Below, piece after piece: positions 32,103-45,535 of a DNA stretch of 64,000 nucleotides. The stretch is from Candidatus Latescibacterota bacterium (lineage in GTDB: Bacteria; Latescibacterota; UBA2968; UBA8231), in contig OZ253462.1 of NCBI GenBank assembly GCA_965261395.1, positions 1,536,001-1,600,000 of the forward strand, in the 5' to 3' direction. Position 1 is the first letter of the stretch. The number at the start of each line of letters is the position of its first letter. The position numbers were made by a program, and so were the translations under genes. The notes below the pieces were generated by a model. The model did not search any database, was not told where the DNA came from, and worked only from the letters and a program-made list of their open reading frames with translations.

Positions 32103-33035
32103 TTAACTATTCAGCGAATCCCGCAGGAGATCAACAACTCGTCTGAAGGCCCAGACTTCACCTCGTGAGAGCGCAACTCCTGAATGCAGTGCCAAGGAAA
32201 GAAGACCATAAAGCTTTTTGACCCACTGGTTCAAAGAGGGGGTCACATGGCCGGCGTCACGATGAAGTTTCAATGCCGCGTACCAGTCATCCGCGCTCAG
32301 CGGCTCTTGGCCTTCGAGTAATGCGTTCAAGTCTTTGCGGAACAGCACCGCCTCAAGGTGTGATCTCACGAGGCCAGCAGCGACGATTGGGCTGCCTGAA
32401 TAGTTTGAGTTCAACAGACTAGGAGAAGGAGCACGCATGAAACCAAGCAGTACCTGCTCGCCCATGAAATCTGAATCATGCGACCAGCTTTCCGATCGGC
32501 ACGAATAGCGTGAGCCGCCTGTTCCGACCAAGAGATCCTCAGCCCCAAAGGCGAAATCTTCGACGTTGTACTGAACACTTCTGATCACGTTGACGAGCGC
32601 ACGCATGTTCGTGAACCGGTACACGCGGGTGAACTCCTCGGGCTCGGTAGACCTGCATGCGTTCATGACACCCGCCTTTGGCAGCGCACGCAAGTGACGT
32701 ATCAGCGTCTGCTGAAGGGCGTCGTTCATGTGGAAGACGACCGCAGCACGACAGCCGTCCAAGCGGTGGGGGGGATGCGACGGGATCTCGAAGCTGTAAG
32801 CCTTGTTTGCGAAGTAGCAGTTGAATAGGCGTTCGTCGGATGCCAAGAACTCGTTACGCAGTCCATCTGCCCACTTGTTGAAGCCCTTGTCCCGAAGGGC
32901 ACTCTCGAGACGGCACCGTAGACCACGGTTGAGTTCATTAAGCTTGTCACATGCTGCAACTACGGCCCCCGCGTCTAACTCCTCGCTCGGTCTCACCGTC
33001 TCTAACGGCTCAAGGTACTCCCACCCCTTCGTCAT
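32103..33035 (-). CDS. Hypothetical protein
   Basis: Long ORF; GAGGAG RBS before MTKGW; no recognised motif. Confidence 0.55.
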   Translation of the reverse strand: MTKGWEYLEPLETVRPSEELDAGAVVAACDKLNELNRGLRCRLESALRDKGFNKWADGLRNEFLASDERLFNCYFANKAYSFEIPSHPPHRLDGCRAAVVFHMNDALQQTLIRHLRALPKAGVMNACRSTEPEEFTRVYRFTNMRALVNVIRSVQYNVEDFAFGAEDLLVGTGGSRYSCRSESWSHDSDFMGEQVLLGFMRAPSPSLLNSNYSGSPIVAAGLVRSHLEAVLFRKDLNALLEGQEPLSADDWYAALKLHRDAGHVTPSLNQWVKKLYGLLSLALHSGVALSRGEVWAFRRVVDLLRDSLNS

Positions 33036-33093
33036 TCTCGACTCCTCTGTTTCAGCTTTTATGCGTACGCGTTTTCTTTTTTGGCGAAGGTTG

Positions 33094-33633
33094 TTAATCT
33101 TTGCGTTTCGAATCCAAGAGCCTGCCAAGGACTGCACCTACTGCCGTTCCGACCCCGGGCAAAAGGATGCTGCCAATTGCCGCGCCGGCTAGAGCACTGG
33201 CTGCAACGCCCCCCTTAGCTGACGCTGCGGCGATACCCATTTTGATTGCCTTGTTTCTGTTGCGCGAGATACCCGAGTGCAGAAGACGTCGCATCGTCTC
33301 GATGTCCTCTTCTGAAAGCTCATCCGACTCTACAGGCAAGTCTTCGGCATTTTGCAGGTTGGAGAGTGCTTCAATGTCTTCACGCCCAAGAAGCAAGAAC
33401 ATCGGGGAAACGCTAAGTACATCAGCCAAGCTCACTAACGTGGAAAGCCTAGGGTCGCCTTCGCTTCCTTCGATCTGAATCACCGTCGCCCGGGAGACCG
33501 AAGCCCTAGTAGCCAAGGTGTCCTGGGATATCTCCAGCGCAGTTCGGGCAGCCACCAGATTTCGGGCGAGGTTCATCCGCACCTGATCTATGTCGAGAAT
33601 ATTGCTGGATGGTGTGCTTCGTCGCTTACTCAT
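33094..33633 (-). CDS. XRE-family HTH protein with C-terminal glycine-zipper helix
   Basis: ISQDTLA...VSRATV..IE...GDPRLSTL; AGAAIGSILLPGVGTAVGA. Confidence 0.75.
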   Translation of the reverse strand: MSKRRSTPSSNILDIDQVRMNLARNLVAARTALEISQDTLATRASVSRATVIQIEGSEGDPRLSTLVSLADVLSVSPMFLLLGREDIEALSNLQNAEDLPVESDELSEEDIETMRRLLHSGISRNRNKAIKMGIAAASAKGGVAASALAGAAIGSILLPGVGTAVGAVLGRLLDSKRKD

Positions 33634-34006
33634 GGTCATCTCCATTGGGGAACATGTGGATTTTCGTGACACCGGCCTCATCCTTCCAGAACACGTAGCT
33701 GCCCTCGGTCAAGCTCCTGCCATACCGAACCGGCAATTGGGCGTCACGAAGTTCGAGAGAGGCGAGTTTGGCGGTTTCCTTTCCTACACCGCGAGCGGAG
33801 ACATTCCGTTTCCACCAACTCATTTCCTCCACACATTTTTGTGCATGGGACTCAAGACCTTCGACGGATGGAAAATTCTCCAGAAGCTCGCAGTGTTCAC
33901 CGGTCTTCGCCTTATCGAGGCGTCACTGGATATCCGCCGGATTGTGCTCCGTCGCGTGGTACACCCATGCCCCTTCAATCCGGTGGTCTTGATATTGGTG
34001 GAAACT

Positions 34007-34768
34007 TCACTCTTCTGAGCCATCGCGCAAAGCAACGATGCCTAGGTACAGACATATCGGAATGGTCTTCCGATATGCCGGACCTTGAAGATCCAGAGCT
34101 ATCCAAGTGCCGGAGATCACCCACAATACAGGGCCGAGCACATTCAGCCACGGGTTACGTTTCACAAGTTCCTTGACTAGATGCTTAGCTGCCTCTCTTC
34201 CGACAATTTGAGCCAGTATCGTGACAATGATAGTCTCAATTATCCCAAGGGTAACTTTGGGTCCAAGAACCTTGAAGAGAATAGGTAAGACCGCTGCCTT
34301 CCCGTTTTTCTTTAGGTGATCCATGATGAGGTCTCGGTCTGCGTCGCCAACCCCAATATCCTCGAATGCCTTTGAGAGTTCTTCCGGGGATTTGCTCAGA
34401 AGTTCTTTCTCAACCACAGCTTTCACCAAACGCTCAAGCCTAACCTCGCTACTGCCACCGCGTTTGATGGGTACCTTGAGTTTTTTGCAAACGTCATCGA
34501 TCAATTCAGAGGCAGCCACCCCAGCCTCATTTTTATCTTTCCCACAAAGGAAGCGTGTCAAATAGGCGAAGTCGGACGACCCGTAGTACCGGATCTGTTT
34601 GTCAATCAACAAGATGAGTTCAGTTCTCGCGGCGTTATTGCTCTTACTCTTGTCGAGCAACTGTTTCCGCTTATTGTCATCTGTAAATGAAAGGTAGCTG
34701 TCGAGCACCTTTGACAAATACTCGAAGTCAGCGTACTCACATTTCTCTAGAAGCGCTTTCATGCTCAT
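34007..34768 (-). CDS. YaaW/DUF3944-like protein
   Basis: YYGSS, DVCKKLKV, LGPVLW...D..GPAYRKTIP motif. Confidence 0.65.
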   Translation of the reverse strand: MSMKALLEKCEYADFEYLSKVLDSYLSFTDDNKRKQLLDKSKSNNAARTELILLIDKQIRYYGSSDFAYLTRFLCGKDKNEAGVAASELIDDVCKKLKVPIKRGGSSEVRLERLVKAVVEKELLSKSPEELSKAFEDIGVGDADRDLIMDHLKKNGKAAVLPILFKVLGPKVTLGIIETIIVTILAQIVGREAAKHLVKELVKRNPWLNVLGPVLWVISGTWIALDLQGPAYRKTIPICLYLGIVALRDGSEE

Positions 34769-35029
34769 CCTCCCCAGACGTATAAGTAACTGACGTTACG
34801 CAGTTTTCCAGAAAATCCTCGATTCCGCCTCAATATCTTGAGTCAACAGGCTTTGATAAACCATAAGATAGAGAGCTACTGCGTAAAGTTAGTTAAGATA
34901 TACACCCAAGCGATGAATGTCAAATATAATATACATACACTAATTTATAAAACAATGTTCGTGCCCAGCTAGTCGCAGTCGAACTGCCGGCCCGATCACC
35001 AATGAGATCTCCGCGAACGCGCTATGTCT

Positions 35030-35394
35030 CAGAAAGGAAGGCGTGCCTACATATTGCTTGAGAGAACGAACCGAGCGCCCCGGTATGCCCAACTCCGTTG
35101 CGGCTGTGGGCAGCCGCCTCACACCACTAACGGTAGTCGGGCTGCGGACTGGATGGAATTTCGACACTAGGCGGGAGCTTTTTTGCCTATTGACTTAGCC
35201 GTGCCTCAGAAGGCGGGGAAATCGTATCAGATCGTTAGCGGTGGAGGTAGAGCTGCTGTCTTCTGCGCCGCCCTCCATCGTCAGATCGCACACGTTATTC
35301 TTCCATCTGAGAGGCTACTGGGAGGATCGTCGGACTAGGTGAACTATTCGACCGGAGAACCCACGGAGCGAACCTCGATACGTTCGATCTTCAC
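35030..35394 (-). pseudogene. Degraded enolase-superfamily gene remnant (left boundary approximate)
   Basis: VKIERIEVRSVGSPVE*FT*SDD aligns with MHITKVEIRTVAPPVDRFTWSDD of 27374..28486. Confidence 0.65.
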
Positions 35395-35536
35395 GGGGCT
35401 CTCCTCGCCACTCCCGTCTCCTTCGCACCACTGCCCCTGTCGTAGACGTATCTCAAAAAATCGAGCCACTCCGGGTCGCAGCCCTGCTCGGTAAAGCCTA
35501 TGCTCAAGCGACATGCCTAGGCCAAGCTGGCGGCCC

Positions 35537-35854
35537 TTATTGAGGATCTGACGATACAAAATCTACTGATAGCCGCAGACCCATACTGTGCAGGATGGTG
35601 GCTAAGGTATGGAGACGGGGATTGCCGCCCGCCGATAGCGTTCGATAAATATTGGACCGATTCAAGCCGGTTTTCTCGGCCAGTTGGCCCAGCCCCCCTT
35701 GCGCCTCCACCACATCCCGTAAGGCCAGCAAGAGCGCTTCGTCGTCGTTATCGCTCTGATATTCCTCTAATGCCACATCAATATACGCTTTAGCCTTGAC
35801 AGGATCGTTGAGTTCCTGCGAATGGAATTCTTTAAAGGCTCCTAATTTTCTCAC
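35537..35854 (-). CDS. Orphan addiction module antidote protein
   Basis: AYI..AL, LLLALRDVVEAQGG..LAEKTGLNR..IYR.LS..GNP; no intact toxin upstream. Confidence 0.8.
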   Translation of the reverse strand: MRKLGAFKEFHSQELNDPVKAKAYIDVALEEYQSDNDDEALLLALRDVVEAQGGLGQLAEKTGLNRSNIYRTLSAGGNPRLHTLATILHSMGLRLSVDFVSSDPQ

Positions 35855-36006
35855 GGCTCTGACTCCTTGTATTCAGCCCATTGTCCGCAAGCATCATTCA
35901 TAATATACAATCTTTATCGCCGACTGAACTACTACCTGATAGCAATAATGGACGCCGCCCCGCCAGCGCGATATATTGCGCCTACCCATCAACAGGAGAA
36001 CACGCC

Positions 36007-37350
36007 ATGGCTCTGACCCCCTGGATTCGCATCGGCCAGCCCTTAGAGGCGGTCATGTCCGATTACGAGCGCATCTTCGACGCCTGGGAACAAGGCGGCA
36101 TCCGCGGCCTAGTCTTTGGCCGCTTGGTCTTTGCCGATGAGCAAGGCCAGTGTACCATCCCCGCGTTCAAGGGCGATCTCGCGCCCTACCAAAAGCGCGG
36201 CCTCACAGCCCAACTGCGCGACGTGCCCCTGCAACCCGACAAGGAAAAGCTCCTGCACGCCATGCTGGCCGACGCCAAAAGGCGCGGCTGGACCGTGATG
36301 ATCTTCGCGCCCGCCTCCGGCACCATTGCCGCCGAGGGCCTGCCGCTGGCGGAGGATCCCTACGGCACCCAGCTACACGCTGCGTCTTGGGAGGACATCT
36401 TCGCGGCTTTCCCAGAAGCCGACGGCGGTATTGTCGATGGCTGGACCGAGTCGCCCTACGAGCTGTCGTATCACCACGGCAACGCAGTCTTCCGCCCGCT
36501 CAGCGACGGCCAGCGCCAAGAGGCAACCGCTAGGGGCTACGACGCCGCGCGCCTAGATCGGGGCCGCCAGCACTTGCACCAGCGCTTCCAGAGCTTCACG
36601 CCCGCCGAAGTGGACTACTATGGTGCCCACGGCGTGCTCTCGGAGATGAACCTCTTCGACATCAACGAGGACGCGCTCTACTGGTTGCGCTGGCGACGCG
36701 AAGACGGCATCCGTCAGGGTCGCGAATTCCGCCAAGCTCTCGACGAGTTGCCGCGCCAATTGCTCCTCGGCAACGGCCCGCGCTCGGCTGTGTTTTCCGG
36801 CATGACCGCGCTCGACTTCCACGCCTGGGGTCAGATCGTGGATTTGCTCTTGGTTAAGCACTACTTCTGGCATCGCGGCTTTGACGGGATGTACGGCACA
36901 GTCGCCCGCTGGGTGCAGCAGATTCAGGAGTGGAACCCGGCGTTGAGCGAAGCGCAGTGCTGGACGGTCCTCCGCTCTTGGCTCGGCATCCGCCTGCCCG
37001 AGGTGGAGTGCCTAGCCGACATGGAATTGGGGTTTCCGCAGGCGTTTTTCGACGAGGTGGTGCAAGAAGAGACGCGCCGCGCCATCGCCGCAGTCGGCGA
37101 CCCGCAAAAGATCCTGCCCTGGGTCGATACCGGGCGCATGCCCCACGGCGGCGACCCCATGACCGCCGGCGATCTCTACCGCATCCTCCAAGCTTCGGAA
37201 GCGGCCGGGCTGCAACGGTTCCTCTTCCACAACCATGCCCACCTGACCGCGGCTGAATGGGCAGTCATCTCGCGGATGTGCGGCACGGCGTGGGACGAAA
37301 ATCCCGACGGCTACTGGCCCCCGGCAACGCCCAAACCCGGGACGTACTAA
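36007..37350 (+). CDS. Uncharacterised protein (possible TIM-barrel), target of repeated insertions
   Basis: Host-like codon usage; GGAG RBS before MALTPW. Confidence 0.7.
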   Translation: MALTPWIRIGQPLEAVMSDYERIFDAWEQGGIRGLVFGRLVFADEQGQCTIPAFKGDLAPYQKRGLTAQLRDVPLQPDKEKLLHAMLADAKRRGWTVMIFAPASGTIAAEGLPLAEDPYGTQLHAASWEDIFAAFPEADGGIVDGWTESPYELSYHHGNAVFRPLSDGQRQEATARGYDAARLDRGRQHLHQRFQSFTPAEVDYYGAHGVLSEMNLFDINEDALYWLRWRREDGIRQGREFRQALDELPRQLLLGNGPRSAVFSGMTALDFHAWGQIVDLLLVKHYFWHRGFDGMYGTVARWVQQIQEWNPALSEAQCWTVLRSWLGIRLPEVECLADMELGFPQAFFDEVVQEETRRAIAAVGDPQKILPWVDTGRMPHGGDPMTAGDLYRILQASEAAGLQRFLFHNHAHLTAAEWAVISRMCGTAWDENPDGYWPPATPKPGTY

Positions 37351-37356
37351 GCGCCC
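36673..37356. repeat. Direct repeat copy 1 (3' half of gene 36007..37350)
   Basis: Near-identical to 39729..40413; last ~117 coding bases recur at 44141..44257. Confidence 0.95.
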
Positions 37357-37409
37357 TATAGCCGCCGGCCCCAAGACCGTCCCACGAGCGACGTCGAGAT
37401 CTGCAAGGA

Positions 37410-37787
37410 ATGCATCAACTTGATCACGGTGATCCTGAACGAGACATGCGCCAGTTTGTTTTGAAATTGCTTGAGAGCTGGGGCTTGAGCAGAGACGATG
37501 CGGTCCTCCTGCTGGGATTCGATCAGACGGACAACGATTTCGTGCGAGCCGTTTTGGAAGGTGCCGCCGATCTGCATGGCCGAGACGTTCGTGATCGAAT
37601 TGCCCATCTTTTTCAGATCAGGAAGACGCTGTCATCGCTCTTTCGCGATCTAGGTGTCGAAAACGAATGGCTGCGCGAACAGCACACCTTGCTGGATGGG
37701 CAAGAGCCGTTGAAGTTGCTGTTGGGCGGCTCCATGGAAGACCTTCTTTTAGTGAAGGAGTACGTGGATGCCGCCGCAGGACGATGA
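37410..37787 (+). CDS. Xre/MbcA/ParS-type antitoxin, no RES toxin adjacent
   Basis: W.L....A.LLG, RI..L..I...L..LF, WLR.....L.G..P..LL. Confidence 0.7.
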   Translation: MHQLDHGDPERDMRQFVLKLLESWGLSRDDAVLLLGFDQTDNDFVRAVLEGAADLHGRDVRDRIAHLFQIRKTLSSLFRDLGVENEWLREQHTLLDGQEPLKLLLGGSMEDLLLVKEYVDAAAGR

Positions 37788-38029
37788 CGCGCCGGAGTCC
37801 CGACAATCGGTTGACAATACACGTTCTGTAATCGGATTGGCGCAGAAGCAGTCCGGTTGGGATTGGACGGTTTGGCCGCTCCTTCCGCGCGCCGGGAGAA
37901 TGGTTCCAATGCAGGCACTGGCGGCTGACGCCGAGTTTCACCCGGCGGCGGCTCTCGTCACCGCACGCTTGGGAGACCTTGCGTCGGGGGCTGGAAGCGA
38001 GAAAGATTGGAGCCGTGGGCAGTTGAAGC

Positions 38030-38386
38030 TCAGCGGTTGATCCACTCCTCCCGAATGGTAAACGGCTCCCCGCAGTCGATATCGCTGTGGTGGATGATCA
38101 GGCGTAAGGTCCCTTCCGCGTCGATGACGTGAAGGTCGAGGGCGGTGTCCGATACCCGGTACGCGACCTGGCGGCAGATCAGTTGCCCGTTCGCCGTCTC
38201 GGTGCGGGTGTTGACCAGCGGCTCTGCGCCGCAGAACTCACCGGTGAATTCGTAGCGTTCGATCTCGACGAGATTGCCGTCCGCGTCGTACACATGCGCG
38301 ATGGCACCGTCCTTAAGCTCTCCCTGCATCTCCTTGTGCCAGCCGGGTTGCCAGCGGCCCCGGCCTATCGGCATGCGCTCGCTCAC
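38030..38386 (-). CDS. Hypothetical protein
   Basis: 118-aa ORF with GAGGAG RBS. Confidence 0.55.
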   Translation of the reverse strand: MSERMPIGRGRWQPGWHKEMQGELKDGAIAHVYDADGNLVEIERYEFTGEFCGAEPLVNTRTETANGQLICRQVAYRVSDTALDLHVIDAEGTLRLIIHHSDIDCGEPFTIREEWINR

Positions 38387-38475
38387 GTTTTTGCTCCTCT
38401 CATCTGCGCCAAAAAGCGTTTGGCGGTCCCGGCAAAGTGGTCCTCGATCTCATCCGCGTCATCACTAAGAACCCC

Positions 38476-38516
38476 GACGGTCGTAGGTTCCCCTTAGGGT
38501 GCCCTACGACCGTCGA
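38476..38516. repeat. Palindrome with GTAG...CTAC (REP-like or terminator)
   Basis: CGACGGTCGTAGG...CCTACGACCGTCG, 13-bp arms. Confidence 0.6.
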
Positions 38517-38524
38517 TTTTATTT

Positions 38525-39148
38525 TCAAGGAATATCGGCGATGAGACCGGTTTTGTGGAGCCGCTTGTCGATGACCTGCGGCGATACCTCAAATGTCCTA
38601 GCTATCCTCTGAGCGGCCCAATCGGCCAGCCGATCTATGTATTGATGGCGTCTAAACCCGACCTGCCTCGCCTGATCGGCGAGGGCGTCCATCTCGGAGA
38701 GCAGGGCGTCAAAGATGTTCTGCAAGTGGCGCTGAGGCACGAGCAGACAGCCGGCGAATTCATACGCCTGATACTCCATCCAGTTTAGCTGTTGCTCAGG
38801 GAGGCTGGCGTAAAGCGTTTTCCATGCCTGTATATCTGGGGTGGCAGGCAAATTCTCGATAAACTCTTTATGCAGAACGAAGTGTCCCAGCTCGTGTGCG
38901 ACGGTAAAGCGTTGCCTGACCGCGTGCTGGTCAAAGTCCAAGTGAATCTCTTTGAAGTCGCGGGTAATGAACCCATCGCCTTCGATGTTGGCCTTCAGTC
39001 CAGGTAGGGGCAGGACACTGATCTTGAGGCAGTATTCGGCGATGTACTCGACATCAACAGGCAGGGTGTCGTCCCAGTATTGGGATAGAAACTCTTCGGC
39101 ATGTTGCTGGATCTCTTCATTCGGAATCCAACGAATCCCGTTCGGCAT
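38525..39148 (-). CDS. ImmA/IrrE-family zinc metallopeptidase
   Basis: LPVDV..I, RQRFTVAHELGH, EYQA..FAG.LLVP, FEVS...I..RL. Confidence 0.9.
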   Translation of the reverse strand: MPNGIRWIPNEEIQQHAEEFLSQYWDDTLPVDVEYIAEYCLKISVLPLPGLKANIEGDGFITRDFKEIHLDFDQHAVRQRFTVAHELGHFVLHKEFIENLPATPDIQAWKTLYASLPEQQLNWMEYQAYEFAGCLLVPQRHLQNIFDALLSEMDALADQARQVGFRRHQYIDRLADWAAQRIARTFEVSPQVIDKRLHKTGLIADIP

Positions 39149-39521
39149 GATGGGTACTCCTCATCAACTCCGCCACCATATCTAGCTGTTCCTCTGTCAG
39201 CTTCTCGCCCCGGATCGTGCGGAAGAGAACGGGCAGTTTGGCTGCCAGCGCCTCGTCGTCGAGGATGTCTCGGGGCACTTGGCCGGCCGAAACCGCCGCC
39301 GCGTCCATAAACGCCCTCCGCGCTTCTGAACCTTCTTCCAAGCCGAGTTGCTGGGCCAGCTTGTCTTGCGCTTGGCGCGATTTAGGGGGCGGCCGGAGAC
39401 CTCGTTCCATCTTGGAATACGTCCCTGGGTCGAGGCCAAACTGCTCGCAGAAGCGCCTGAGAGGTACTTGCTGGTGGTGGCGCAACGATTGTAAAAACAA
39501 AGCAAAAGGGCCTACGCTCAT
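39117..39521 (-). CDS. XRE-family (ImmR-like) transcriptional regulator
   Basis: LRRFC...GLDPG.YSKMERG..PP; overlaps the ImmA gene. Confidence 0.8.
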   Translation of the reverse strand: MSVGPFALFLQSLRHHQQVPLRRFCEQFGLDPGTYSKMERGLRPPPKSRQAQDKLAQQLGLEEGSEARRAFMDAAAVSAGQVPRDILDDEALAAKLPVLFRTIRGEKLTEEQLDMVAELMRSTHHAERDSLDSE

Positions 39522-39728
39522 TACTAAGCTCCTACGTCTAAACTAATCTCTTACGTTTTACTACGAAGGATCAGGGGACGGCCGGTGCGTCGCGCTCCTT
39601 TCTAAGCGGCAGGTGCTGGTGTCTTGGGAGTCAACATACAACTGTTGGACGATTTTGCCAACAGCTTAATCAAAAAATTAATCTTCCCCTTGCTCCGCCT
39701 TCTGCGGGACCTTACATGCCCCTTACGT

Positions 39729-40413
39729 GCGCTCTATTGGCTGCGCTGGCGACGCGAAGACGGCATCCGTCAGGGTTCGCGAATTCCGCCAAGCCCTCGA
39801 CGAGTTGCCGCGCCAACTACTCCTCGGCAACGGACCGCGCTCGGCTGTGTTTTCCGGCATGACCGCGCTCGACTTCCACGCCTGGGGACAGATCGTGGAT
39901 TTGCTCTTGGTCAAGCACTACTTCTGGCATCGCGGCTTTGACGGGATGTACGGCACGGTCGCCCGCTGGGTGCAGCAGATTCAGGAGTGGAACCCGGCGT
40001 TGAGCGAAGCGCAGTGCTGGACGGTCCTCCACGCTTGGCTCGGCATTCGCCTGCCCGAGGTGGAGTGCCTAGCCGATATGGAATTGGGATTCCCGCAGGC
40101 GTTTTTCGACGAGGTGGTGCAGGAAGAGACGCGCCGCGCCATCGCCGCAGTCGGCGACCCGCAAAAAATCCTGCCCTGGGTCGATACCGGGCGCATGCCC
40201 CACGGCGGCGACCCCATGACCGCCGGCGATCTCTACCGCATCCTCCAAGCCTCGGAAGCGGCCGGGCTGCAACGGTTCCTCTTCCACAACCATGCCCACC
40301 TGACCGCGGCTGAATGGGCGGTCATCTCGCGGATGTGCGGCACGGCGTGGGACGAGGATCCCGATGGCTACTGGCCCCCGGCAACGCCCAAACCCGGGAC
40401 GTACTAAGCGCCC
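39729..40413 (+). pseudogene. Direct repeat copy 2: 5'-truncated duplicate of gene 36007..37350
   Basis: No native start; extra T near 39777 (CAGGGTTCGC versus CAGGGTCGC); scattered mostly synonymous SNPs. Confidence 0.9.
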
Positions 40414-40602
40414 CGTACGCCGGCTTGACAGATTATGGATAACGATACATCGTTAGTCTGCCCGTGGTCCTTGGAAGCACCCTTGACCACCAAATCAAAG
40501 CTGCCTAATTAGTACCTATAGCGCGAGTGCAGTGAATTTTGGCAATGCTCAGGACGGTTCTAGCTGTTCGACATCGCCCAAACGAAACATAGGAGAAGCG
40601 CG

Positions 40603-41967
40603 ATGGAGGGTATAACAGAGCGGAAAGCCGCTGCAAATCCGACCAAAGAGTTCTTCGTAAACATGATAACGCGAGACATAACTCTCGAAGATAGCATTTT
40701 TGACCTTATTGATAACAGTGTTGACGCCGCATGGAAGGCCATCGGCAGCCCTGCTATGAGCTTGATGGACGATACCGATCTTTCGGAATACTCGATCTCG
40801 ATTGAGCTTTCGCCCAAACAATTTTTGATTAGAGACAACTGTGGTGGTATGTCTCTCAATGATGCCGTAGATCATGCCTTTAGCTTCGGTAGAAGAGAAT
40901 CCGAAGAAAACGACGATTACAGCATAGGTGTTTATGGTATCGGGATGAAACGAGCGGTATTCAAGATTGGCAGAGAGATACGAATCAGAAGCACCGTCAC
41001 GGAGGATAATGGATCAACGTTGGCTTTTGCAGTTCCGATCAGCGTAAACAACTGGTTGAAAAGCAACAATCCTCCTTGGGATTTCGATATTGTCGATGAC
41101 GAAAAATTGGATAAACATGGTGTCGAGATCGTTGTTGAAGATCTTACGCTGGCCGCTAGAATCTCACTTAACAATCCCGCGTTTATTGAGAACCTTCGAC
41201 GCATGATCACTCGAGATTACATGATCTATTTGAATCGAGGACTCAATATAACGGTCTGTGGTCAAGAAATAACCAGTATGCCGATCAAGCTTGCTCGAAG
41301 CGATGATTTTGCTCCGTTGCGTGATAACTACAGGGAGCAACAGAATGGTGAATTTGTCTCCGTGGAGATCATTGGAGGAATGGCTGCCGCGCCGCCTGAC
41401 AGTACGGAGCCAGATGAGAAACACGATGGCGATAAAAGATTCGGGTGGTATGTCGCATGCAATGGGCGGATCGTTCTCGCTGCTGACAAATCTACTATCT
41501 CGGGTTGGGGAACTTCAGACTGGCCACAGTGGCACCGTCAATATTCTGGATTTATTGGCTTCGTGCTTTTCTCCGCTCCAAATACTGCTACACTTCCACT
41601 GACGACCACAAAGCGCAGTGTCGACTTAACCTCTGAAATTTTTAAGCAGGCACAAATTAAGATGCGTGCTCTTTCGAAAGAGTGGATCGCCTACACAAAT
41701 ACTAGAAAACAGACACTGAAGGAGGCGAAAGAGAAAGAAGATAAAACGGAAGCTGTTACAATACAGTCCGTTAAGAAGAGCAGTGCAATAAGGCTTCCTA
41801 AACTTAAGCCGAAAGATGTGGAACGACCTGCCAACGTCCATTACTCGGTTCCGGTGACCAAGATTAAGGAACTCGCAAAAGGATTTGGCAGTATAAGCAT
41901 GTCATATCGCGATGTGGGCCTCAAGTCTTTCGAATATGCATACGACGATCTTGTCGAGGATGAATGA
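40603..41967 (+). CDS. GHKL/MORC-type ATPase
   Basis: DLIDNSVDA, IRDNCGG, SIGVYGIGMKRA, HGVEI, GWYV.CNGR, LPLTTTK; AT-richer DNA. Confidence 0.85.
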   Translation: MEGITERKAAANPTKEFFVNMITRDITLEDSIFDLIDNSVDAAWKAIGSPAMSLMDDTDLSEYSISIELSPKQFLIRDNCGGMSLNDAVDHAFSFGRRESEENDDYSIGVYGIGMKRAVFKIGREIRIRSTVTEDNGSTLAFAVPISVNNWLKSNNPPWDFDIVDDEKLDKHGVEIVVEDLTLAARISLNNPAFIENLRRMITRDYMIYLNRGLNITVCGQEITSMPIKLARSDDFAPLRDNYREQQNGEFVSVEIIGGMAAAPPDSTEPDEKHDGDKRFGWYVACNGRIVLAADKSTISGWGTSDWPQWHRQYSGFIGFVLFSAPNTATLPLTTTKRSVDLTSEIFKQAQIKMRALSKEWIAYTNTRKQTLKEAKEKEDKTEAVTIQSVKKSSAIRLPKLKPKDVERPANVHYSVPVTKIKELAKGFGSISMSYRDVGLKSFEYAYDDLVEDE

Positions 41968-42920
41968 TGTCTTCATTCGATGTAGTGAACTACAGTCTTA
42001 GGCCTAGCAAAAGTATTCAAAGGCAGATTATTTTTGACGGTATCAACACCTTAACGCCTCGCCTCGATCTTAATTTGAGCCAATTTATTTACATTGGTCT
42101 CGGATCGATCTGGTTCACAGATTTTGTTATGGCCCACAAGCTGCTCGGCATAAAAAATATGATCTCTATGGAGGAAGACTGTATCGGCTACAAACGAGCT
42201 TGTTTCAATACTCCCTATGCGACTGTAAGTGTTCAAAAAGGGTCTTCCTATACAATTCTTCCAACGCTTTTCGACGATGAAGACATCAGTCGGTATCCAT
42301 GGCTGATTTGGTTAGACTATGACAGTGAATTTGGTGAAGAACTACGGGACGACACTCGTGCTGTGATTGAAAGAGCTCCAGACAACACGCTTTTTTTGAT
42401 TACTTTTAACGGTAATGATTATAAATATGGAAAACCTAAAGAGAGACCTGAGAGGCTCCAGCAATTGTTTGAAGATGTGGTTCCAGATAACCTCTCCAAG
42501 CAGTGTTGCAAGAATACCCGTATGCAAAAAACCTTAGCCGATTTTGCTATCGACTTCATGCAATCTGTGGCAGCGAATTCAAGACGTCGGGGAGGACTCG
42601 TGCCAGCATTCCGGGTGATATACAAAGATAGTGCCGCTATGGTGACGGTCGGTGGCTTCCTAGCATCGTCTCTGCAGTTAGCTGATAAAGCACAGGAGAT
42701 CGTAAAAGAGGCAGACTGGAAATGTCGGCCGAAGGAAACTATCGTCGCACCCCATCTTACAATTCGAGAGGCGGTGACCCTTCAATCGAATCTTCCCAAC
42801 ACGGAAGGTTTATCTAGAAAAATTGTACAGTCTTTAGGATTTGATCTTGAAGATAATCAGATCAAGATCTACGAAAAATACTATCGTGAGTATCCGTCAT
42901 TTGCACAGATCATTACCTAG
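41964..42920 (+). CDS. Putative SAM-dependent methyltransferase-like protein of unknown substrate
   Basis: NYSLRPSKSIQR, YIGLGS.WF.DF, MISME, IWLDYD, YKD...M.TVG; ATGA-coupled to the ATPase. Confidence 0.6.
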   Translation: MMSSFDVVNYSLRPSKSIQRQIIFDGINTLTPRLDLNLSQFIYIGLGSIWFTDFVMAHKLLGIKNMISMEEDCIGYKRACFNTPYATVSVQKGSSYTILPTLFDDEDISRYPWLIWLDYDSEFGEELRDDTRAVIERAPDNTLFLITFNGNDYKYGKPKERPERLQQLFEDVVPDNLSKQCCKNTRMQKTLADFAIDFMQSVAANSRRRGGLVPAFRVIYKDSAAMVTVGGFLASSLQLADKAQEIVKEADWKCRPKETIVAPHLTIREAVTLQSNLPNTEGLSRKIVQSLGFDLEDNQIKIYEKYYREYPSFAQIIT

Positions 42921-42976
42921 GGATATTCTTCGATCCCAAAAGCGTGGACGTATCCTCTCTAGAGAGGAGAGAGACC

Positions 42977-44050
42977 ATGGGGAGTGATGCTGAGGGTAGA
43001 ATGAAACTAATCGATCTGTTCTCCGGATGTGGTGGGTTTTCACTCGGAGCGCATCAGGCTGGTCTCAACGTCGTTGCTGCGTTCGACAATGACCCTACTT
43101 TAGCTTCTTCCTATCCGCTCAACTTTCCCAACACACGAATGATGTTGATGGACGTGACGCAGCTTGATGGTGAATCTATCCGCTCAGCCATCGGACGTAT
43201 AGATGGAATCTTAGGCGGCCCACCCTGCCAAGGTTTTAGTGTTATCGGTAAGCGTCATCCTGATGATCCCCGTAGATTGTTGTTAAATCACTTTTTCAGA
43301 ATCGTTCGGGAAATACGACCTTCCTTTTTCGTGATGGAGAATGTGCTTGGGCTTGCCTATTCGGGTGCCCGTGCCGTATTGAAGAAGGCGCTACGCCTTG
43401 TTGACGATGAATATTCGGTTTTGGGACCTATGACTTGGAGTGCTGCGGAATTTGGTGCTGCAACAAATCGTCCGCGACTTTTCGTTATCGGCGTTCATAA
43501 AGACAGTGGTGAAGCGTTGACCTTGGAGGACTTCGATACCATGAAGCGGACTCCAGCGACGGTCAGAGCCGCCATTGCTGATTTGGAGAATGCGACCCCT
43601 TTAGAAGAGCAAGATGGGTTTGACGTTTGGCAGATTGCACGAAGGGGTCGCCCCTTCGAGTACGCTCGTGCCTTGCGGTCACCGGATCGATGCTTTACCA
43701 GCCACCGAACAACCAATCACTGTTTGCGGGTAGTTACTCGCTTCAAAGAGGTTGCCGAGGGAGGCGTCGACCCAGTCGGACGCCACCCGCGTTTAGCTTG
43801 GTCCGGTCAATGCCCAACGCTTCGAGCAGGTACGGGTACTGATCGAGGATCCTATCAATCGGTTCGGCCTCTTCACCCGGAACAACCGCGCGTCATAACC
43901 GTAAGAGAAGCTGCTAGACTTCAGGGCTTCCCTGATGCCCATCGTTTCCATTCAACAGTCTGGCACTCGTTTAGGATGATTGGAAACAGCGTATCTCCCA
44001 TTATGGCGCAGGCGATTTTCAAGGTAATTGGAGCAAAACTCGATAACTGA
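42977..44050 (+). CDS. dcm: DNA (cytosine-5) methyltransferase
   Basis: DLFSGCGG (I), GGPPCQGFS (IV), MENV (VI), R.R (VIII), TVREAARLQGFP (IX), IGNSV (X). Confidence 0.92.
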   Translation: MGSDAEGRMKLIDLFSGCGGFSLGAHQAGLNVVAAFDNDPTLASSYPLNFPNTRMMLMDVTQLDGESIRSAIGRIDGILGGPPCQGFSVIGKRHPDDPRRLLLNHFFRIVREIRPSFFVMENVLGLAYSGARAVLKKALRLVDDEYSVLGPMTWSAAEFGAATNRPRLFVIGVHKDSGEALTLEDFDTMKRTPATVRAAIADLENATPLEEQDGFDVWQIARRGRPFEYARALRSPDRCFTSHRTTNHCLRVVTRFKEVAEGGVDPVGRHPRLAWSGQCPTLRAGTGTDRGSYQSVRPLHPEQPRVITVREAARLQGFPDAHRFHSTVWHSFRMIGNSVSPIMAQAIFKVIGAKLDN

Positions 44051-44140
44051 TCCAAAAATTGGCTCAGGCTTTTACCGAATGCACTTCCTGTCACGGTCAC
44101 ATGAGAATCATCGTAGCTCTCCCCTGACCAAGTACTCAAT

Positions 44141-44257
44141 CATACCCACCTGACCGCGGCCGAATGGGCGGTTATCTCGCGGATGTGCGGCACGGCGTGG
44201 GACGAAGATCCCGACGGCTACTGGCCCCCGGCAACGCCCAAACCCGGGACGTACTAA
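44141..44257 (+). repeat. Direct repeat copy 3 (last ~117 bp of gene 36007..37350)
   Basis: Encodes HLTAAEWAVISRMCGTAWDEDPDGYWPPATPKPGTY*; ends 18 bp before the next gene. Confidence 0.95.
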
Positions 44258-44275
44258 ATACACAAGGATTGAATC

Positions 44276-45535
44276 ATGGCCAAAAAACGCGACAAACAAC
44301 CTCCCATCCGCGTCGGCGTAGTCGGCGTCGGTCGCGGCCGCTCCTTCATGCAGGCGGCTGCGGCAACCGGCATGAAACTGGTCGCCATTTGCGACATTTG
44401 GGAAGAGCGCCTCATTGCAGAAGGCAAGGCGCTCAACGTGCCAACATTCGTCGATTACGACGAATTCCTCGGCTGCGACATGGACGCGGTCGTGCTAGCC
44501 AACTACTTCCACCAGCACGCGCCGTTTGCCATCAAAGCACTCAACGCCGGCAAACACGTAATGAGTGAAACCGCGGCCTGCCACACCTTGGGCGAAGGCG
44601 TGGCGCTGGCGCGATCAGTCGAGAAAAGCGGCAAGATTTACATGTTCGCCGAGAACTACCCCTACATGGTCTTCAACCAAGAGATGAAGCGGCTCTACCA
44701 AAAGGGCCGCGTCGGCGAGTTCAAATACGGCGAGGGCGAGTACGTCCACCCCGACCCACCCGAAGTGAAACTGGCGCGTAGCTGCGGGCGCGACCACTGG
44801 CGCAACTGGATCCCCGCCACCTACTACTGCACCCATTCCATCGCCCCGGTCATGTACATCACCGACACCCGACCCGTAAAAGTGAACGGCTTTGTCATCC
44901 CCTTTGATTTCGCCGACTCCACCCAAACGCTACACATGAACCGCAGTGACACCGCCGCAGTGATCATCTGCCGGATGGACAACGACGCGGTAATGAAGTC
45001 GCTGCACGGTGCGCTGCGCGGCCACGGCATCTACGTCCGCATCCACGGCAACAAGGGGGTGATGGAAAACTGCCGCCACGGCGACAAACAGCGGCTACGC
45101 GTGTGGTACGAACCGTGGGAAAAGCGCCAGAGCGATCCGGTCGAAACGGTGTACAGTCCCGACTTCCCCGTGCATCATGGCCTAGCGGCGCGCGCTGGAC
45201 ACGGCGGCGGCGACTTTTTCACCAGCTACCACTTTGCCGAGGCCATCCGCACCGGCGAGCCGCCCTATCTCGACGTGTATCGCGGCATCGACATGAGTAT
45301 CGCCGGAATCCAAGCGTGGCGTTCGGCACTGAACGACTCGGCACCACTGGAAGTCCCCGACTTCCGCCGCGAGTCGGTGCGCCGAAAATACGCCAAAGAC
45401 GACTGGTCGCCCGACCCCGAACGCAAAAAGAAAGGGCAGCCGCCGAGCAGTGTTTTGGGTGCAATCGAACCGGACGCCGAGGCGAAAAAGCTGGCGAGGA
45501 AAGTCTGGGCAGACCAGGGCTATCTGGGCGATTGA
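44276..45535 (+). CDS. Gfo/Idh/MocA family oxidoreductase
   Basis: GVVGVGRG, GKHVMSE, AENY, YYCTHS, GHGGGD. Confidence 0.85.
   Translation: MAKKRDKQPPIRVGVVGVGRGRSFMQAAAATGMKLVAICDIWEERLIAEGKALNVPTFVDYDEFLGCDMDAVVLANYFHQHAPFAIKALNAGKHVMSETAACHTLGEGVALARSVEKSGKIYMFAENYPYMVFNQEMKRLYQKGRVGEFKYGEGEYVHPDPPEVKLARSCGRDHWRNWIPATYYCTHSIAPVMYITDTRPVKVNGFVIPFDFADSTQTLHMNRSDTAAVIICRMDNDAVMKSLHGALRGHGIYVRIHGNKGVMENCRHGDKQRLRVWYEPWEKRQSDPVETVYSPDFPVHHGLAARAGHGGGDFFTSYHFAEAIRTGEPPYLDVYRGIDMSIAGIQAWRSALNDSAPLEVPDFRRESVRRKYAKDDWSPDPERKKKGQPPSSVLGAIEPDAEAKKLARKVWADQGYLGD

Follow-up and report, generated by a model that had tools for sequence, protein, structure and literature searches.

Three co-oriented genes lie at positions 40603-44050 of a 64,000-nucleotide (nt) stretch of contig OZ253462.1 of a Candidatus Latescibacterota bacterium (positions 1,536,001 to 1,600,000; the whole stretch is referred to here as the window), where they sit between housekeeping genes. 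The three open reading frames (ORFs) form a compact group of 3.4 kb, all on the + strand, and encode a MORC-type GHKL ATPase, a methyltransferase-like protein of family PF20553 and a Dcm-type C5 cytosine DNA methyltransferase (Table 1). Copies 2 and 3 of a 121-nt repeat flank the genes, such that the trio occupies an insert of 3729 bases between them. An earlier sequence-only reading had described three AT-richer genes, the first two joined by an ATGA overlap and the whole bounded by repeat copies, and each of these points holds: the ORF calls agree with the base composition profile (G+C content of 0.41-0.51 over 40500-43750, compared with 0.60-0.65 in the flanking genes), the overlap is read directly in the sequence, and the coordinates of the two border repeats agree.

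The repeat is present in three copies that share 95-97% mutual identity by repeat search and alignment, and all three terminate at the TAA stop codon of the gene at 35881-37350. The 3' end of that gene is partially duplicated over 680 nt (39727-40407), and copy 2 forms the last 121 nt of this duplicate; copy 3 is the displaced 3' end of the gene. The right border is separated from the Dcm stop codon by 86 nt that contain no gene fragment. A sigma-70 consensus scan of the leader between the left border and the ATPase start found no promoter, and a promoter and terminator consensus scan of 40300-44300 gave fewer sites than in shuffled sequence.

The first protein matches PF13589 (HATPase_c_3; E 8.7e-13, 48.9 bits relative to a cut-off of 25), and its residues 8-412 match phrog_20521. 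An AlphaFold model built from 32 sequences, with a mean predicted local distance difference test (pLDDT) score of 86, has a helical tail after the GHKL and S5 domains. The best Foldseek matches in the PDB are the ATPase modules of Hsp90/TRAP1, MORC2, MORC3 and SMCHD1, with template modelling (TM) scores of about 0.5; they include MORC2 with DNA (9cdj), and the alignments to the GHKL and S5 modules of MORC2 and MORC3 are full-length. Neither the model nor its matches reveal a nuclease domain or an extra C-terminal catalytic domain, and the C-terminus, for which structure prediction and a Foldseek search had been suggested, is a helical tail. All four ATP-binding motifs of a GHKL (Bergerat-fold) ATPase (N box, G1, G2 and motif IV) are present, and D34/N38, D78-x-G81-G82 and G109-x-x-G112-x-G114 are invariant in an alignment of 32 sequences. 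The S5 domain is modelled as alpha+beta over approximately residues 215-340 and includes T335-T336-K337, in which K337 is the S5 lysine and which is invariant in the same alignment. Residues 281-291 fit the MORC motif GhXhhpXXRhl, as a pattern match made without alignment to the sequences of Iyer et al., and within them G281, W282, C286, N287 and R289 are invariant (n=32). Judged from its sequence and model, the protein has the two features that characterise the MORC family in the sense of Iyer et al. (2008), an S5 domain with a basic residue and the GhXhhpXXRhl motif. A conserved extension follows S5, and since an extension in this position is ascribed to paraMORC1 in the account given there (PMC2292703), the ATPase is either a MORC protein proper or a paraMORC1. 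Its assignment as a MORC-type GHKL ATPase, proposed earlier, is one on which family match, motifs, S5 domain and fold matches concur; by analogy, ATP-driven dimerisation and action on DNA are predicted.

The second gene is translationally coupled to the first, and an alternative ATG at 41967, which better fits the N-termini of its homologues, would give a product of 317 amino acids (aa) and a one-base overlap with the ATPase gene. The protein matches PF20553 (Methyltransf_35, "putative O-methyltransferase") over residues 4-316 of 318 with an E-value of 1.5e-85 (287.7 bits relative to a cut-off of 27). The "O-methyltransferase" name stems from Pfam and NCBI annotation, and binding of S-adenosylmethionine (SAM), methyl transfer and O-methylation are all putative. 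Its structural model (pLDDT 87) has the strand order of a class I SAM methyltransferase, and Foldseek returns 182 PDB chains at E <=0.001, all those listed being methyltransferases; Trm1, TrmM, TrmK, COMT-type enzymes and others are matched, although the similarity is generic, with TM scores of 0.3-0.5. The family profile finds nothing below E 0.33 among the sequences of PDB chains. As modelled, the protein has the Rossmann-like fold, the glycine loop and the acid after strand 2 that are expected of class I SAM methyltransferases.

Conservation is strong across this family, with 33 positions conserved in at least 95% of 65 members that extend down to 26% identity. Among them is a basic N-terminal motif (Y10, R13, P14, K16, R20). 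The glycine loop after strand 1 comprises Y43, G45, G47 and S48, of which the last three are invariant in the 65 members, as are E70 after strand 2 and W116-L-D-Y-D120 after strand 4, and the pattern is that of a predicted enzyme with a SAM-type pocket. The motifs YSLRPSK, YIGLGS and WLDYD that had been picked out earlier are present and contain family-wide invariant residues, and the Rossmann-like protein inferred from them has, by the model, the Foldseek search and the PF20553 match, a class I methyltransferase fold. A Toprim-like reading of the D-x-D motif was dropped because the glycine loop, the strand order and every listed fold match are methyltransferase-like. The family comprises 1793 representative clusters at E <=0.001; no fused forms are seen in the top 150 of these (lengths 107-359 aa), nor among proteins of 558-2000 aa, which is weak evidence. 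The nearest named clusters in the ESM Atlas carry PF28273 ("PP_RS20740-like", score 0.93), a family not in the Pfam scan results. A complex prediction for the ATPase and the PF20553 protein, run without controls, scored 0.00; it gives no verdict and is not used here.

The third protein matches PF00145 (DNA_methylase; E 4.9e-59, 200.8 bits relative to a cut-off of 22), TIGR00675 (E 1.3e-43) and the PADLOC MTase_II model (E 1.6e-91), and the solved structure closest to it in sequence is 3g7u (E 3e-80). Its translation contains GGPPCQGFS and MENV, and the PCQ and ENV motifs together with PF00145 identify it as the C5 cytosine methyltransferase that the sequence-only reading had placed third. Its start is more likely the ATG at 42978, behind a GGAG, than the one called.

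The ATPase and PF20553 genes form an obligate pair

A pattern scan with two N-terminal PF20553 peptide patterns, taking one genome per species, yielded 69 related loci, with hosts among the Alpha-, Beta- and Gammaproteobacteria, Acidobacteriota, Gemmatimonadota, Chloroflexota, Bacteroidota and Binatia. Homologues of the window ATPase are found by phmmer in 67 of these loci, and in 63 the ATPase gene lies directly upstream of the PF20553 gene on the same strand under a strict adjacency rule, usually with an overlap of 1 or 4 bases. The exceptions are two loci at contig ends (L006, L068), two with a frameshifted or shortened ATPase ORF (L010, L019), one with a transposase insertion (L011) and one artefact of the ORF caller (L022); wherever the arrangement can be judged, the ATPase gene is directly upstream of its partner, and the pairing is obligate.

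A Dcm of at least 250 aa is encoded in the fetched flanks of 56 loci, directly downstream and on the same strand in 28 of them, and 32 of the 69 have the type of Dcm seen in the window (phmmer E <=1e-100). Across 23 trio loci and the window the pairwise identities of the proteins are correlated, with a Mantel r of 0.94 for the ATPase and PF20553 and of 0.83-0.84 for either of these with Dcm (p <=0.0005 throughout). Related sequences share a history, so the correlation shows joint inheritance and not, by itself, functional dependence. The pair is thus co-inherited with Dcm as a trio, and the conserved co-occurrence on which the earlier proposal had been made to depend is borne out. A DNA search of complete E. 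coli genomes gave no match, and the phage and plasmid collections contain the pair in one phage and two plasmids only.

Among the variations at these loci, we note that an IS66 element splits the pair on S. meliloti pSymA (L072, 9531-12225), that a DDE transposase does so in L011 (7088-8020), and that the ATPase is represented by two overlapping ORFs in three loci from metagenome-assembled genomes (L010, L027, L028). Either decay or assembly error may account for these interruptions and split ORFs. A conserved ORF of approximately 170 aa with no Pfam or PADLOC match (cluster c5) precedes the ATPase gene in L029, L030, L034, L038, L040 and L041, a different ORF of 170-208 aa (cluster c10) does so in L047, L049 and L052, and an ORF of approximately 300 aa (cluster c4) accompanies Dcm in six loci. 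Second, longer HATPase_c_3 proteins are encoded near the pair in L062 (4617-6356, - strand; 579 aa), where the gene adjoins Dcm and the C-terminal part of the product weakly matches PADLOC PD-Lambda-5_A, and in L015 (719-3052, - strand; 777 aa), beside a calcineurin-like phosphoesterase.

Defence contexts, nucleases and possible function

A defence context is provided by the Microvirga terrae plasmid pR24_2 (L073, NZ_CP102847.1, 89.5-106.7 kb), in which the pair, identified by profile search and Pfam, lies mid-way in an array of ten co-directional genes: HTH (helix-turn-helix), Dcm, Vsr, DrmD, an MmeI-like methylase, the ATPase, PF20553, DrmA, DUF1998 and DrmC. The array constitutes a class 1 DISARM operon, with Dcm and Vsr as additional genes. 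In L013 the trio is situated between hsdM and hsdS of a type I restriction-modification (R-M) operon, and elsewhere the pair has as neighbours DruE3 (L014), the Thoeris genes ThsA/ThsB (L007) or PbeA/PbeC/DndB (L053, L054); the pair is clearly embedded in defence operons. The single phage record is that of the Pseudomonas Pf inovirus PfAC20, in which the trio fills the accessory end. The report of this phage notes that PADLOC saw only "a cytosine methyltransferase, incomplete RM", and that the accessory region of sister Pf phages contains genes for IetAS, Avs, AbiE and toxin-antitoxin systems (PMC11878078).

The reading that we favour, tentatively and at somewhat less than even chances, is that the island is a self-contained mobile cassette for methylation-linked defence or an R-M accessory function. 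Dcm would write 5-methylcytosine on the DNA of the carrier as a self mark, and the MORC-type ATPase, by analogy with MutL and MORC, would be an ATP-gated dimeric DNA clamp working in obligate partnership with the PF20553 protein, which probably binds SAM. The action of the pair on DNA would depend on the methylation state of that DNA, with the result that phages or other incoming DNA are limited; the pair could do this by itself or as an addition to R-M, DISARM or Pbe machinery, and would need no nuclease in cis. By comparison with related GHKL modules, the PF20553 gene sits, as a coupled gene, in the slot where those modules carry an effector or partner (a nuclease, TIR or Response_reg_2), and because it takes this place after S5 and is translationally coupled, the pair can be read as one machine, a MORC clamp with a SAM-dependent partner. 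A plausible scenario is that the pair has been recruited by methylation-based self/non-self systems and is packaged in the island with its own Dcm. Physical interaction of the two proteins, use of SAM, action on DNA and a defence phenotype are what we infer, and the function of the PF20553 partner may be restriction, the addition of a second mark or signalling. The methylation-linked anti-phage or DNA-modification module that had been proposed from the window is supported, its anti-phage role being suggested by context.

No nuclease or Vsr domain is found in the three island proteins with Pfam, NCBIfam or PADLOC, and a tblastn search with 29 Vsr proteins from related loci finds no vsr gene or remnant in the whole window (best E 0.03), in keeping with the earlier report that no PD-(D/E)xK, HNH or Vsr gene is recognisable. 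The cognate endonuclease that would stand beside the methylase in a type II R-M system is absent from the island. Among the 69 loci, Vsr (PF03852; representative E 6e-29) is encoded near the pair in 29, either after Dcm or beside it, and a restriction-type nuclease is present in at least 25: 21 by clustering, as HNH_2, the PADLOC REase_II family PDLC03404 or PbeA, and four by Pfam, which added nuclease-type neighbours in L007, L015, L023 and L044. An HNH_2 protein adjoins Dcm or Vsr in L005, L008, L022 and L041. The PDLC03404-family ORFs occur in 12 loci that have another type of Dcm; three of the 12 were scanned (E 1e-112 to 1e-125) and the remaining nine assigned by BLAST clustering. By clustering, the 32 loci with the window type of Dcm fall into 16 without a Vsr, HNH_2, REase_II-type or PbeA-type neighbour, 12 with Vsr only and four with HNH_2, although three of the 16 (L007, L015, L023) do have other nuclease-type neighbours by Pfam. 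Nuclease-free trios lie between housekeeping genes in L004 and L019. The suggestion that homologous loci might always carry a nuclease, lost only here, is not borne out by these counts; since about one-third of the relatives adjoin a restriction-type nuclease, "nuclease-free" fits the island and many relatives but not the family as a whole.

Two alternatives turn on these nucleases. The island could be the remnant of a type II R-M system in which an HNH_2-type endonuclease and vsr were lost on trimming, leaving an orphan Dcm and two passengers, as might be suggested by the four window-type loci with HNH_2 beside Dcm or Vsr and by the 12 other-type loci with a REase_II-family ORF. However, the repeat borders are clean and the short interval after the Dcm stop holds no gene fragment, the form lacking Vsr, HNH_2 and REase_II-type genes is the commonest among window-type loci (16 of 32, some of them between housekeeping genes), and loss of a nuclease leaves the conserved pair unexplained, such that we place this last among the readings and think it very improbable. 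Alternatively, the ATPase could be a MutL substitute, brought along by the mobile Dcm, that stimulates Vsr, acting in cis or from the host, in very-short-patch repair of T:G mismatches, and the island would then limit the damage that 5-methylcytosine causes. Vsr accompanies Dcm in 29 of the loci, and the link between MutL and Vsr is stressed by Iyer et al. in their discussion of these operons (PMC2292703). But vsr is missing from both island and window, 40 of the 69 loci are without it, the PF20553 protein is given no role, and the Dcm-less, DISARM and Pbe contexts are unexplained; this reading is fourth in our ranking and highly doubtful.

The many copies without a nuclease are also compatible with a cassette that restricts nothing. 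Here PF20553 would be a DNA methyltransferase loaded by the MORC clamp, adding a second mark beside 5-methylcytosine that protects the carrier DNA in new hosts or acts epigenetically. The class I fold and the intact set of SAM-type motifs speak for such an enzyme, as do the 16 window-type loci described above, the carriage of the cassette by phage and plasmid, and four loci (L053, L054, L057, L063) where a PbeA-type nuclease-helicase and an ATPase of DndD/PbeC type accompany the pair and no Dcm was found in the flanks. PF20553, however, matches no DNA-methyltransferase family by sequence or as its best fold match, its strand-4 motif is atypical, and simple methyltransferases need no GHKL ATPase; moreover, other DNA methyltransferases are already encoded on pR24_2 and in L013, so that an extra protective mark is not obviously needed. 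We regard this nuclease-free double modification as unlikely, and rank it second after the cassette for defence or R-M accessory function.

The diversity of contexts raises a further alternative, in which the two genes form an autonomous module, of the guard or abortive-infection kind, that accompanies methylation-based immunity genes, as PrrC does within a type I R-M locus, and is triggered by attack on this immunity; the substrate of PF20553 would in that case be RNA or protein and not DNA. At least six partner systems are represented (three Dcm contexts, type I R-M, DISARM, Pbe/Dnd, and MutH-like with N-methylases), three loci lack Dcm despite full flanks (L044, L060, L067), and the best fold neighbours of PF20553 are the tRNA methyltransferases Trm1, TrmM and TrmK. 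Nevertheless, divergence is tightly correlated with a single Dcm lineage in 32 loci and the spacing is operon-like, the fold similarity is generic (TM <=0.5), and MORC-type ATPases are DNA-directed wherever studied, in the survey of Iyer et al. (PMC2292703) and in the Foldseek match 9cdj. This third-ranked reading we consider improbable.

There are also several observations that count against the favoured cassette for defence or R-M accessory function. The sample of 69 loci is biased towards sequences that retain the two N-terminal peptide motifs, and its seeding was from the PF20553 side only. Thirteen of the loci have no Dcm of at least 250 aa in their flanks; in seven of the 13 the flanks are short or a contig end cuts into a Dcm. 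PADLOC v2 has no models for, and gives no matches to, the ATPase or PF20553, either in the window or in distant relatives. In a near-far comparison, 13 of the 98 non-core ORFs closest to the pair and 14 of 95 at a distance of 6-8 kb match PADLOC at E <=1e-10, and this contrast shows no proximity gradient. The fold of PF20553 does not point to a substrate, its neighbours being methyltransferases that act on tRNA, small molecules or caps (TM <=0.5); the strand-4 D-Y-D differs from (D/N/S)PP(Y/F/W), the motif of amino-methyltransferases. In the ATPase the motif I acid is the invariant aspartate D34, at a position where MutL presumably has glutamate, and an aspartate in place of the catalytic glutamate could mean slow hydrolysis.

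A bolder form of the favoured reading, to which we give little probability, is nuclease-free restriction by bacterial MORC clamps, in which 5-methylcytosine would be the self mark and the MORC/PF20553 pair would entrap unmethylated incoming DNA for SAM-dependent chemical marking or silencing, without cutting. In plants and animals, MORC ATPases have a central part in gene silencing linked to methylation. If true, nuclease-free MORC restriction would be a prokaryotic precursor of the connection that exists in eukaryotes between MORC and silencing by DNA methylation, and PF20553 would be a new kind of SAM-dependent effector. The trio is compact and widespread, with clean borders and many nuclease-free copies, and therefore offers a tractable test of how bacterial MORC proteins act on methylated DNA; it also provides PF20553, otherwise just a Pfam name, with a context and an obligate partner.

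Other features of the window

The gene at 35881-37350, whose 3' end is repeated, has no Pfam or NCBIfam match. Two AT-richer inserts separate the repeated 3' ends, an arrangement that looks like serial insertion at its stop codon; no integrase was seen among the scanned ORFs from 29-48 kb. The second insert is the island, and the first (37351-39726) contains four ORFs and lies between repeat copy 1 and the 680-nt duplicate. Two of these, the IrrE/M78 and HTH_31 genes, are similar to a regulator pair of the CapP/CapH-like kind; their orientation is away from the trio, and the duplicate lies in between. Upstream of the repeated gene there is another stretch of lower G+C content (33000-35800, with values of 0.44-0.49 around 34000-35250), which may be a further island.

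Table 1. Coordinates of the island genes, repeat copies and neighbouring features within the window.
Feature	Position	Strand	Remarks
MORC-type GHKL+S5 ATPase	40603-41967	+	454 aa; helical C-terminal extension; no nuclease domain
PF20553 (Methyltransf_35) protein	41964-42920	+	318 aa; ATGA overlap with ATPase gene at 41964-41967
C5 cytosine DNA methyltransferase (Dcm-type)	42944-44050	+	368 aa as called
Leader	40408-40602	+	195 nt, from repeat copy 2 to ATPase start
Repeat copy 1	37230-37350	+	native 3' end of the 489-aa gene 35881-37350, up to its TAA stop
Repeat copy 2	40287-40407	+	left border of island; 97% identical to copy 1
Repeat copy 3	44137-44257	+	right border of island; 95% identical to copy 1
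Protein with Xre/MbcA/ParS-type antitoxin C-terminal domain	37410-37787		no visible toxin partner
118-aa ORF, no assigned family	38030-38386	-	
IrrE/M78 peptidase	38525-39148		PADLOC CapP E 9e-21; overlaps HTH_31 gene
HTH_31 protein	39117-39521		overlaps IrrE/M78 peptidase gene
HTH_3 protein	33094-33681	-	in low-G+C stretch 33000-35800
ORFs without family matches	32103-33137, 34007-34768		in or near low-G+C stretch

Comparison with known systems

No match to a described system, which the sequence-only reading had named as a possible outcome, was obtained with PADLOC v2, the NCBIfam cut-offs or literature searches. In the literature neither "Methyltransf_35" nor "PF20553" gave a match, and no pairing of a GHKL protein with PF20553 was found, the YprA preprint included; the pairing with PF20553, the co-inherited trio and the embedding in DISARM, type I R-M and Pbe loci were likewise not found in these searches.

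DISARM class 1 resembles the proposed system as a methylation-based defence that recognises unmethylated DNA, and on pR24_2 the pair lies between drmMI and drmA with Dcm and Vsr upstream. The window, however, is without DrmA, DrmB, DrmC and DrmD, and the pair is not a listed DISARM component; the DISARM core (the DrmA helicase and DrmB/DUF1998) is absent from the island and is present around the pair only on pR24_2. MZA and BbrUII/HgiDII are similar in that a GHKL ATPase lies beside a C5 methylase, and over the GHKL core of the ATPase the NCBIfam models score 17.8 bits for MzaB (cut-off 850) and 26.4 bits for restrict_BbrUII (cut-off 550). MZA consists of a MutL-like ATPase, Z1 and AIPR, with Dcm. 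The MzaB score is far below its cut-off and the island has no Z1 or AIPR genes, and identity with MZA was rejected. The BbrUII/HgiDII model has 659 positions, whereas the island ATPase is approximately 200 aa shorter and lacks an extra C-terminal catalytic domain. Hma is likewise a three-gene candidate defence system with a methylase and an ATPase, described as a DUF3883 Snf2 helicase-nuclease, a DUF1156 methylase and a DUF499 ATPase in the relevant parts of two reports (PMC8565338, PMC11232893); these components differ from those of the island, no PADLOC Hma model matches the island proteins, and this identity too was set aside.

A closer arrangement, Dcm-GHKL(HEF_HK)-Response_reg_2-Vsr, is described by Bellieny-Rabelo et al. 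(2021, PMC8011034). Those loci, as presented there, share with the island a C5 methylase, a HATPase_c_3 protein and a small alpha/beta gene directly after it, often with Vsr and HNH_2, but the partner in them is PF19192, in contrast to PF20553 in the island. The HEF_HK/Response_reg_2 module was considered for the island and rejected, as Pfam reports no PF19191, PF19192 or second HATPase_c at E-values up to 10.

The closest relationship is with the MORC and paraMORC operons of Iyer, Abhiman and Aravind, who in 2008 predicted such ATPases in R-M operons together with cytosine methylases and Vsr (PMC2292703). The passages devoted to these operons place GHKL and S5 ATPases near cytosine methylases, Vsr and HNH nucleases, with a minority of neighbourhoods without a helicase, and describe nuclease or TIR domains fused after S5 in related GHKL proteins; the GhXhhpXXRhl motif given there is the one that the island ATPase matches. 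The text of section 4 makes no mention of a partner with a methyltransferase fold such as the island has, and a 2026 preprint, where it touches on the R-M role of bacterial MORC relatives, still terms it "proposed". A MORC or paraMORC ATPase beside a cytosine methylase is thus the kind of system already predicted in 2008, and the trio is a variant of that theme.

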